16,498 nucleotides of DNA from a virus (lineage: Duplodnaviria; Heunggongvirae; Uroviricota; Caudoviricetes). The notes under the pieces were generated by a model. The model saw only the letters and a list, made by a program, of their open reading frames with translations, did no database searches and was not told the DNA's origin. The stretch is taken from positions 1 through 16,498 of the IMG/VR virus record IMGVR_UViG_2728369591_000008; one strand, given 5' to 3'. This document shows positions 8,748-9,083 of the stretch, in pieces; position 1 is the first letter of the stretch; each line of letters opens with the position of its first letter. The translations under genes and the position numbers were made by a program.

Positions 8748-9083
8748 GGTAGACGGTTGGTAGACAGATTCACTTAACCCTCTACCAACCATCTACCAAT
8801 TAATATTTTGAATTATAAAGATATTTTCAATGTGGTAGAGAGGTAGACAGTTATTTCTATATTCCTAAACCACGGGGGGTATATAAAAAACAGATAGTTA
8901 AGGGGGCATTTTTTAAATTTCTCTTTTAACTGTCTACACTGTCTACCATTTAGTAAAAATCATTAATTATCAATGTATTAATGCGGTAGACCGTTGGTAG
9001 ACAGTTTGCAGATTGTTTTTTTGTTATGTGTTAATAACATTAAATAAATCAATCAATTATATCGGTAGACAGTTGGTAGACAG
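8748..9083. repeat. Iteron array / candidate replication origin: GGTAGAC(A/C/G)GTTGGTAGACAG-type doublets in both orientations in an AT-rich spacer
   Basis: Copies at 8748..8767, inverted 8780..8797, 8834..8850, inverted 8930..8947, 8985..9004, 9064..9083; non-coding, AT-rich, directly downstream of the primase/helicase gene. Confidence 0.7.

Follow-up and report, generated by a model that had tools for sequence, protein, structure and literature searches.

How does a satellite island that carries a primase/helicase gene of the phage P4 type begin its own replication, and where on its DNA does this happen? The question is raised by a stretch of 16,498 nucleotides, IMG/VR virus record IMGVR_UViG_2728369591_000008 (Caudoviricetes), positions 1 to 16,498, which is termed the window below. 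In this window, a cluster of short repeats (iterons) occupies positions 8748-9083, just after the stop codon (8720) of a gene for a protein of the P4 alpha family, termed the initiator. An initial annotation had proposed that this iteron array is an origin of replication, and the analysis reported here supports that proposal: the array is very probably the cis-acting replication origin region of an Escherichia coli phage-satellite island that is related to P4 and of the type of the phage-inducible chromosomal islands (PICIs). Four independent comparative lines support this reading. The C-terminus of the initiator matches the P4 origin-binding domain (PDB 1KA8) both by sequence and by fold. Phage P4 has its crr element, a repeat region bound by alpha, in the same position, past the alpha gene. 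The island is syntenic with EcCICFT073, a PICI that has iterons of the form GGTAGA[C/T]AG and whose pri-ori plasmid has been studied (PMC6092414). Finally, the iterons of 27 loci co-vary with the primase tail but show no such relation to the helicase core.

The iteron array

The array contains 12 monomers of a 9-mer resembling GGTAGACAG, which are grouped into six doublets in both orientations (Table 1), and the iteron consensus in the window is GGTAGACAGTT. The initial annotation had described at least six doublets in both orientations, and inspection of the sequence and a repeat finder confirmed six at the coordinates given there. The 20-mer given there as the general form of the doublet applies only in part: three doublets match it with up to three mismatches, while the other three are degenerate or have tighter spacing. 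Three occurrences of the full 20-mer at this threshold compare with 0.01 expected in the window. The shorter motif GGTAGAC is found nine times in the window against 0.92 expected, a number reached in none of 200 shuffles, and eight of the nine copies lie inside 8748-9081. GGTAGA is found 17 times against 4.2 expected, with 11 copies in the array and six scattered singletons outside it. A full-text search of the literature for GGTAGACAG together with “iteron” gave no match.

The surrounding DNA is AT-rich and non-coding, as had been described: its G+C content is 0.30-0.34 over 8700-9100 compared to about 0.5 in the flanking genes, and 8721-9052 contains no open reading frame (ORF) of at least 50 amino acids. 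A single antisense ORF of 71 amino acids (9053-9268) overlaps the last doublet. GATC is missing from 8600-9150, which is unremarkable at such AT richness.

Within the array, four of the doublets form two units of about 75 bp, each with a minus-strand and a plus-strand doublet around an AT-rich spacer, and one further doublet lies on either flank. The two units align as inverted copies of each other with a score of 59. Shuffled sequences averaged 15.5 and did not exceed 28; these shuffles served as a control for the alignment in direct orientation, whose own score is 39. When the 40-mers of the window are ranked by stability, three of the bottom four fall inside the array. The least stable of all is 9024-9063 (nearest-neighbour ΔG -39.5, against a mean of -53.5 and a standard deviation of 4.7), and 8791-8830 and 8943-8982 rank third and fourth. 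The whole window contains no match to the DnaA box (TTWTNCACA).

Two further observations concern the array. The consensus for integration host factor (IHF), WATCAANNNNTTR, has three matches in the window, and two of them lie in the array (8968-8980 and 9047-9059), each 4 bp upstream of one of the last two plus-strand doublets. Both belong to one repeated 38-nt unit, ATCAAT...GGTAGAC.GTTGGTAGACAGTT, and they are therefore not independent evidence. In addition, a close relative from E. coli FDAARGOS_1058 (L032) has three tandem 11-bp units (GGTAGACAGTT three times) in place of the two at 9064-9085 in the window; the number of iteron copies thus varies, as slippage would give.

The initiator and its origin-binding domain

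The initiator matches TIGR01613, the P4-family primase C-terminal region, and residues 141-592 share 49% identity with P4 alpha (tblastn). The same search gave no alignment to alpha for residues 1-140, the match beginning at residue 141, so any primase activity is only putative. For residues 1-133, the only match is to a PHROG without a known function.

The C-terminal domain was modelled with AlphaFold. A prediction from the single sequence reached a predicted local distance difference test (pLDDT) score of 35, and it was replaced by an AlphaFold2 model based on an alignment of 37 homologous sequences, which has a mean pLDDT of 66, with 10-residue blocks of 69-85 within domain residues 41-100. 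This model consists of three helices followed by a β-hairpin. Its top match in Foldseek is 1KA8 (E 1.1e-5, probability 1.00, TM score 0.52/0.61), and the next matches are winged helices of ORC/Cdc6 proteins, which are weak. The strands of the predicted hairpin, or “wing”, are model residues 86-88 and 98-100, and they follow a helix at 66-78. Compared to P4 alpha, the tip of the wing has a five-residue insertion, GPDKG, which is seen both in the alignment with 1KA8 and in the homologue alignment. The wing is a candidate determinant of iteron specificity, as this segment co-varies with iteron type.

Correspondence with the EcCICFT073 origin

In PICIs, the origin is the region 3′ of the initiator gene, and in those of E. 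coli two iteron sets are placed around an AT-rich region (PMC6092414). A plasmid carrying the pri-ori segment of EcCICFT073 is maintained at the restrictive temperature; deletion of rep leaves no colonies, deletion of ori significantly reduces colony numbers, and amplification of the island needs pri (PMC6092414). EcCICFT073 was located at NC_004431.1 1377930-1388654, coordinates that agree with Table S1 of the same paper.

The window and EcCICFT073 have a common order of int, an alpA-type helix-turn-helix (HTH) gene, an Icd-like gene, a DUF4222 gene, the primase gene and the iteron region, with PerC further on. Their primases are 44% identical over the full length (E 1e-175). In both, iterons in both orientations lie directly 3′ of the initiator gene, with 11 copies of GGTAGA[C/T]AG in 288 bp past the primase in EcCICFT073 and 12 copies of nearly the same core in the window. 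The window therefore has these features of the Gram-negative PICI replication module: an initiator gene followed by non-coding iterons, iterons that flank meltable AT-rich DNA (spacers of 11-19% G+C), an initiator homologous to the validated Pri-Rep protein, and a syntenic left arm (int, alpA, pri).

Co-variation of the iterons with the initiator tail

The regions downstream of related primase genes were compared in 23 loci of other Enterobacterales species, several E. coli loci, P4 and EcCICFT073. Of 30 loci, 28 have a 7-mer that is repeated 4-10 times in the 450 bp past the primase stop, and that 7-mer is nearly absent elsewhere in each locus (0-3 copies), except in P4 (8 copies, with a second cluster). 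No array or a weak one was found in these 450 bp in Erwinia rhapontici (L028) and Serratia marcescens (L016), where the top 7-mer has 2 and 4 copies; in these two the origin may lie elsewhere or be degenerate.

The class of the iteron matches the class of the C-terminal tail of the protein, and five classes can be distinguished. The iteron GGTGAACA (GTGAACA), which P4 and several relatives carry, occurs with the tail KRKTKHG(I/L)RSN; this tail reads KRHTKQGIQTN in P4 itself. The window-type iteron GGTAGACA (GTAGACA) occurs with (C/R)T(K/R)(G/N)PDKGR.(I/A).N, the iteron GGTGGAGA (GTGGAGA) with KKSTKG(N/H)MRSN, and the iterons GGTGGACA and GGCGGACA (GTGGACA and CGGACAG) with ATRG...QSN. In the fifth class, GGGTAGA(T/C) occurs with LTR..KG..QTN, and the whole origin-binding domain is divergent.

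Iteron class is predicted by identity to the window in residues 561-601, and not by identity in the helicase core. For example, L003 is 92% identical to the window in the core and 26% in the tail, and it has P4-type iterons, while L021 is 72% identical in the core and 61% in the tail, and it has window-type iterons. In a Mantel test on 27 non-redundant, phylogenetically structured loci, the iteron k-mer profile correlates with tail distance (r 0.617, p 0.0003). This correlation is unchanged in a partial test of the tail given the core (0.616), compared to -0.19, which is not significant, for the core given the tail.

Loci whose iteron sequences differ still place about 12 iterons in a common layout, with offsets from the stop codon of approximately 16-, 26-, 68+, 90-, 101-, 109-, 140+, 152+, 162+, 184-, 227+ and 235+ (signs give the strand). 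Between the window and L014, the coding sequence of the wing has 66-86% nucleotide identity and the arrays cannot be aligned, yet the iteron motif is the same; it is thus the motif, and not the whole array, that stays together with the wing. L003 (E. coli CFSAN061768, 3816-4102) is a capsid-forming PICI with 13 copies of GGTGAACAG past its primase gene. As it carries the type 1 repeat of P4, P4-type origin specificity is also used outside P4-like satellites.

A putative exchange cassette

In BLAST searches against E. coli genomes, the homology of other islands to the primase gene ends at approximately 8604, and homology to the ProQ module on the far side of the array starts at 9086-9098. Sliding identity to L003 is 96% at 7915-8034, 75% at 8515-8574 and 58% at 8575-8634, and then about 40%. 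On the left, the breakpoint falls a short distance before the codons for the wing (8607-8651). These breakpoints, at about 8600 and 9086, delimit a recombining unit that consists of the initiator tail and the iterons (8605-9085). The primase tail is the only coding sequence that travels with the repeats, which argues that the primase, and not another island protein, reads them.

There is an even chance that the last 45 or so residues, with the wing, and the adjacent iterons form a self-contained specificity cassette that is swapped among PICIs, capsid-forming PICIs and P4-like satellites of Enterobacterales. If so, several orthogonal origin classes would exist, GGTGAACAG, GGTAGACAG, GGTGGAGAG and GGTGGACAG, which would differ only at iteron positions 4, 5 and 7, and the wing-tip insertion GPDKG would be what re-reads GA as AG. 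Such a cassette would provide a protein-DNA recognition code that can be read, and it would account for the co-residence of several such islands in one genome without cross-activation of each other's origins.

Alternative explanations

The array might serve two purposes, as an origin whose occupancy or firing also gates read-through into the ProQ/FinO and PerC genes downstream. This is unlikely, although it fares best among the alternatives to an origin alone; the initial annotation had raised, as a side suggestion, a control of the FinO-like gene by bound initiator. The ProQ/FinO gene is the neighbour of the array, and no claim is made that it belongs to the origin. The last iteron had been described as directly abutting the ribosome-binding site of this gene; the two are near each other but not adjoining, since the start equivalent to that in RefSeq is 9104 and not 9092. 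The likely Shine-Dalgarno sequence is GGGG at 9094-9097, about 10 nt past the last iteron. A scan for promoters and terminators, which stayed at the chance level and gives no clue to how the FinO-like gene is transcribed, found no terminator-like site on the plus strand between the primase stop and the ProQ gene. Moreover, transcription in Gram-negative PICIs is unidirectional and rightward (PMC6092414), so transcripts of the primase operon may plausibly read through the origin. In the lineage of the window, the ProQ module is joined to the last iteron without a spacer, compared to one of about 40 nt in L002. However, this junction may be a mere recombination scar, and the spacing to the next gene varies among relatives.

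It is less likely still that the array is a replication enhancer similar to crr, bound by the initiator and needed in cis, with synthesis starting elsewhere in the island. The model for this would be P4, in which the repeat block past alpha is annotated as crr and a rep_origin with the same repeats lies 4.5 kb away. The organisation of the array in two units recalls the two 120-bp repeats of P4 crr, and the right end of the island lies outside the window, which leaves room for a distal site. However, there is no second iteron cluster in the 16.5-kb window, where one GGTAGAC and six GGTAGA, numbers near chance, are found outside the array. Among the loci compared, only P4 has many extra copies of its repeat elsewhere (8 versus 0-3). 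Furthermore, the cloned pri gene and adjacent ori of EcCICFT073 are sufficient for plasmid maintenance (PMC6092414).

That the repeats are instead operators for an island regulator (AlpA, PerC or another HTH protein), which would control the ProQ/FinO and PerC genes and have no part in replication, is very improbable. The array does end about 20 nt before the ProQ/FinO start, without room for a separate promoter, and a promoter-like match at 8836-8863 (+) overlaps a doublet. However, promoter-like matches occur at the chance rate (3 found versus 2.2 expected), and relatives keep the array past the primase gene even though the genes downstream differ (a hypothetical gene and a single-stranded DNA-binding protein (SSB) gene in L003 and EcCICFT073). 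Among coding sequences, that of the primase tail is the only one to co-vary with the repeats and to be transferred with them. A packaging site carries very low weight, as the cos sites of EcCICFT073 are separate elements (PMC6092414) and nothing ties the repeats to packaging. Integrase arm sites were dismissed as an explanation: the distance from the repeats to int and the attachment (att) site is 6.5 kb, and the repeats co-vary with the primase.

Several observations nevertheless weigh against the main reading. Among relatives that are 93-99% identical, iterons are not better conserved than spacers, with 14 of 107 iteron columns variable compared to 38 of 229 spacer columns (p 0.52), and the monomer at 8842-8850 is mutated in several of them. 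The iteron layout in the window departs from that common to most relatives. The co-variation was measured on loci that share phylogenetic structure. In EcCICFT073, a very different origin-binding domain is paired with almost the same iteron core, so that the code linking tail to iteron is not one-to-one. Finally, P4 crr is equivalent in position while the P4 rep_origin lies at a distance; position alone is therefore no proof of initiation and cannot separate an origin from an enhancer required in cis.

Proposed mechanism of initiation

With the array taken as the origin, the following sequence of events can be proposed. After induction, the island initiator would be made, combining an SF3 (superfamily 3) helicase with a C-terminal winged-helix origin-binding domain. 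The origin-binding domains would dock on the GGTAGACAG iterons, and doublets spaced 8-11 bp apart would bring neighbouring domains close together along the DNA. The helicase would then assemble on the very AT-rich spacers and melt them, with 9005-9063, 8798-8833 and 8948-8984 as candidate sites, and replication would start without DnaA. Specificity for GGTAGACAG over the P4 sequence GGTGAACAG would be set by the last 45 or so residues of the initiator, including the wing with its five-residue insertion. The initiator tail and the iterons would be inherited and exchanged as one cassette (8605-9085).

The island and its neighbouring genes

The features of the island are listed in Table 1. The intergenic region was found in 105 of 5426 complete E. 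coli genomes (approximately 2%), always on the chromosome. An identical replication and right-hand module with a 100% identical array is present in strain APEC E123 (L001), where it is located at tRNA-Thr beside proA. The integrases of the window and of APEC E123 (region 3727-5183 of L001) are 66% identical overall, yet they are identical over the last 60 or so residues. The different sites (tRNA-Gly(CCC) and tRNA-Thr) and the partly identical integrases indicate that the left arm is mosaic and that att specificity has been swapped.

Table 1. Coordinates of the array, the initiator and other features in the window
Feature	Positions	Strand	Details
tRNA-Gly(CCC)	835-908		island integrated alongside
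P4-type tyrosine integrase	1033-2286
int-alpA RNA motif	2331-2398		Rfam RF02996, 39.3 bits, above gathering score; just downstream of the integrase gene
AlpA	3407-3604		Pfam
AntA-domain protein	3682-4482
ORF with Icd-like C-terminus	4475-5629
DUF4222 protein	6628-6918
Initiator gene	6915-8720	+	601-amino-acid P4 alpha-family “primase”/SF3 helicase; D5_N, DUF5906, Pox_D5 (Pfam, PHROG)
Origin-binding winged-helix domain	8385-8690	+	residues 491-592; phmmer to PDB 1KA8 (P4 origin-binding domain), E 6.6e-19
Putative exchange cassette	8605-9085	+	initiator-tail coding sequence and whole iteron array
Predicted β-hairpin “wing”	8607-8651	+	residues 565-579, RAK-CTKGPDKGR-VIT
Doublet 1	8748-8767	+	GGTAGACGGTTGGTAGACAG; 11-bp register; monomers 1 (8748-8756) and 2 (8759-8767)
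Doublet 2	8778-8797	-	GGTAGATGGTTGGTAGAGGG on minus strand; 11-bp register; monomers 3 (8778-8786) and 4 (8789-8797)
Doublet 3	8834-8850	+	GGTAGAGAGGTAGACAG; 8-bp register; monomers 5 (8834-8842) and 6 (8842-8850)
Doublet 4	8930-8947	-	GGTAGACAGTGTAGACAG on minus strand; 9-bp register; monomers 7 (8930-8938) and 8 (8939-8947)
Doublet 5	8985-9004	+	GGTAGACCGTTGGTAGACAG; 11-bp register; monomers 9 (8985-8993) and 10 (8996-9004)
Doublet 6	9064-9083	+	GGTAGACAGTTGGTAGACAG; 11-bp register; monomers 11 (9064-9072) and 12 (9075-9083)
Unit 1	8778-8850		minus-strand doublet, 36-bp spacer 8798-8833 (11% G+C), plus-strand doublet
Centre between units	8851-8929		79 bp, 29% G+C, two G-runs
Unit 2	8930-9004		minus-strand doublet, 37-bp spacer 8948-8984 (16% G+C), plus-strand doublet
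Spacer, unit 2 to last doublet	9005-9063		59 bp, 19% G+C; candidate DNA-unwinding element
ProQ/FinO-family gene	9104-9634	+	Pfam PF04352, E 2.9e-22; RefSeq start of identical locus; alternative ATG 9092
PerC	9631-9918

The 384-amino-acid ORF at 4475-5629 has an Icd-like cell-division-inhibitor domain only at residues 336-379, and relatives make the Icd-like protein separately, with a length of about 70 amino acids. The ORF in the window is either a fusion or an over-long ORF call.

To the right of PerC, the genes at 10053-15167 have no assignable function. They include one for a protein of 380 amino acids whose N-terminus resembles that of a lipoprotein, several small ORFs, a gene for an HTH protein, and one for a DUF4747 protein together with its neighbour. 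Among these genes, no capsid, terminase, Psu/Sid or defence homologues were recognised with Pfam, PHROG, NCBIfam and PADLOC, and PADLOC gave no matches for seven unassigned ORFs. No psu, sid, delta or epsilon gene was found among the ORFs scanned, which comprise part of the small ones. A weak match of 12379-12924 to a terS PHROG (1.8e-6 over 44 residues), at the level of the HTH, is the sole terminase-like signal. In SatelliteFinder, the core set for PICIs includes a gene for capsid morphogenesis and/or one for a small terminase or for the redirection of packaging (PMC10085698). No such gene was found to the right of the array within the window, beyond which the right end of the island lies. 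As recognisable hijacking genes are lacking, the island is filed as having a PICI-type replication module and not as a proven PICI.

No attR, sought as an exact repeat of at least 12 nt of the tRNA/att region, is present in the window. Homology specific to the island ends at approximately 15422, and the sequence from about 15420 to 16498 matches tens of thousands of sites in E. coli chromosomes and plasmids; this right end is probably an insertion sequence. In E. coli ETEC1747 (L030, 1-330), a truncated 5′ fragment of a ProQ/FinO gene, fused to the last 50 or so nt of the primase gene, precedes the array in place of a full primase gene, and a complete ProQ gene follows it. This record has three copies of array-like sequence, which suggests a rearrangement or tandem islands, possibly with an origin that lacks its own initiator.

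Annotated in this way, the array would mark the replication origin of E. coli satellite islands that integrate at tRNA genes and occur in about 2% of complete genomes. The PICIs that the founding paper lists (PMC6092414) do not include these islands, and its supplement has no mention of glyU, thrW, ProQ or iteron. Moreover, the comparisons suggest that in the P4 alpha family origin specificity may be carried by a small swappable module made of wing and iterons. Such a module would be relevant to incompatibility between satellites that reside in one genome, and to designing orthogonal replicons that need no helper.

Comparison with known replication systems

Compared to EcCICFT073, the window differs in several respects. 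The origin-binding domain of EcCICFT073 is divergent (35% identity over residues 491-560) and has a short tail without the wing insertion. Its doublet registers are 9-11 bp, while those of the window are 11, 8 and 9 bp, and the layouts differ; the 336-bp array in the window, with its two inverted units of about 75 bp, is unlike that of EcCICFT073. The att site of EcCICFT073 is in the ycfD-phoQ intergenic region, compared to tRNA-Gly(CCC) in the window, and an SSB module follows its array in place of ProQ/FinO. EcCICFT073 also encodes capsid and decoration homologues, and none were found in the window.

P4 alpha combines a helicase with a C-terminal origin-binding domain, homologous to the initiator in the window, and P4 replication is independent of DnaA. 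Unlike P4 alpha, the initiator has a five-residue insertion in its wing and N-terminal 140 residues that do not align. The annotation of P4 places crr (“cis required region for replication”) right behind the alpha gene, in the position that the array has in the window. P4 crr comprises two 120-bp repeats, each with five “ori type 1 repeats” in both orientations, and the separate rep_origin with the same repeats contrasts with the single cluster in the window. The P4 type 1 repeat is GGTGAACA(G), and the type 1 octamer TGTTCACC is not the iteron of the window; between the window iteron GGTAGACAG and the P4 sequence GGTGAACAG, two adjacent positions differ (GGT-AG-ACAG versus GGT-GA-ACAG). The array thus departs from the P4 system proper in two features that define the latter: the sequence of the type 1 repeat and the presence of two separated cis elements. 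A P4 cosmid has been described in which the crr and ori elements of P4 are included but not active (PMC9942202).

The staphylococcal pathogenicity islands (SaPIs) are found in Gram-positive hosts, and their Rep belongs to a different helicase lineage; no sequence relation to the window was found, no search aimed at it having been made. SaPI initiator and ori are reportedly matched in specificity, in work attributed to Ubeda et al. 2007. The organisation of SaPIs is the same as that of the window, with ori immediately 3′ of the initiator gene and iteron sets around AT-rich DNA (PMC6092414). Unlike the iteron replicons of Rep_3/RepA plasmids, the window has an SF3 helicase as its initiator and no DnaA boxes. 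The arrangement described here is already known to work in EcCICFT073 and phage P4. It is no new kind of system, and what the window adds to it is limited to an island lineage not described before, one variant of iteron and wing, and the inheritance of these two together in the manner of a cassette.

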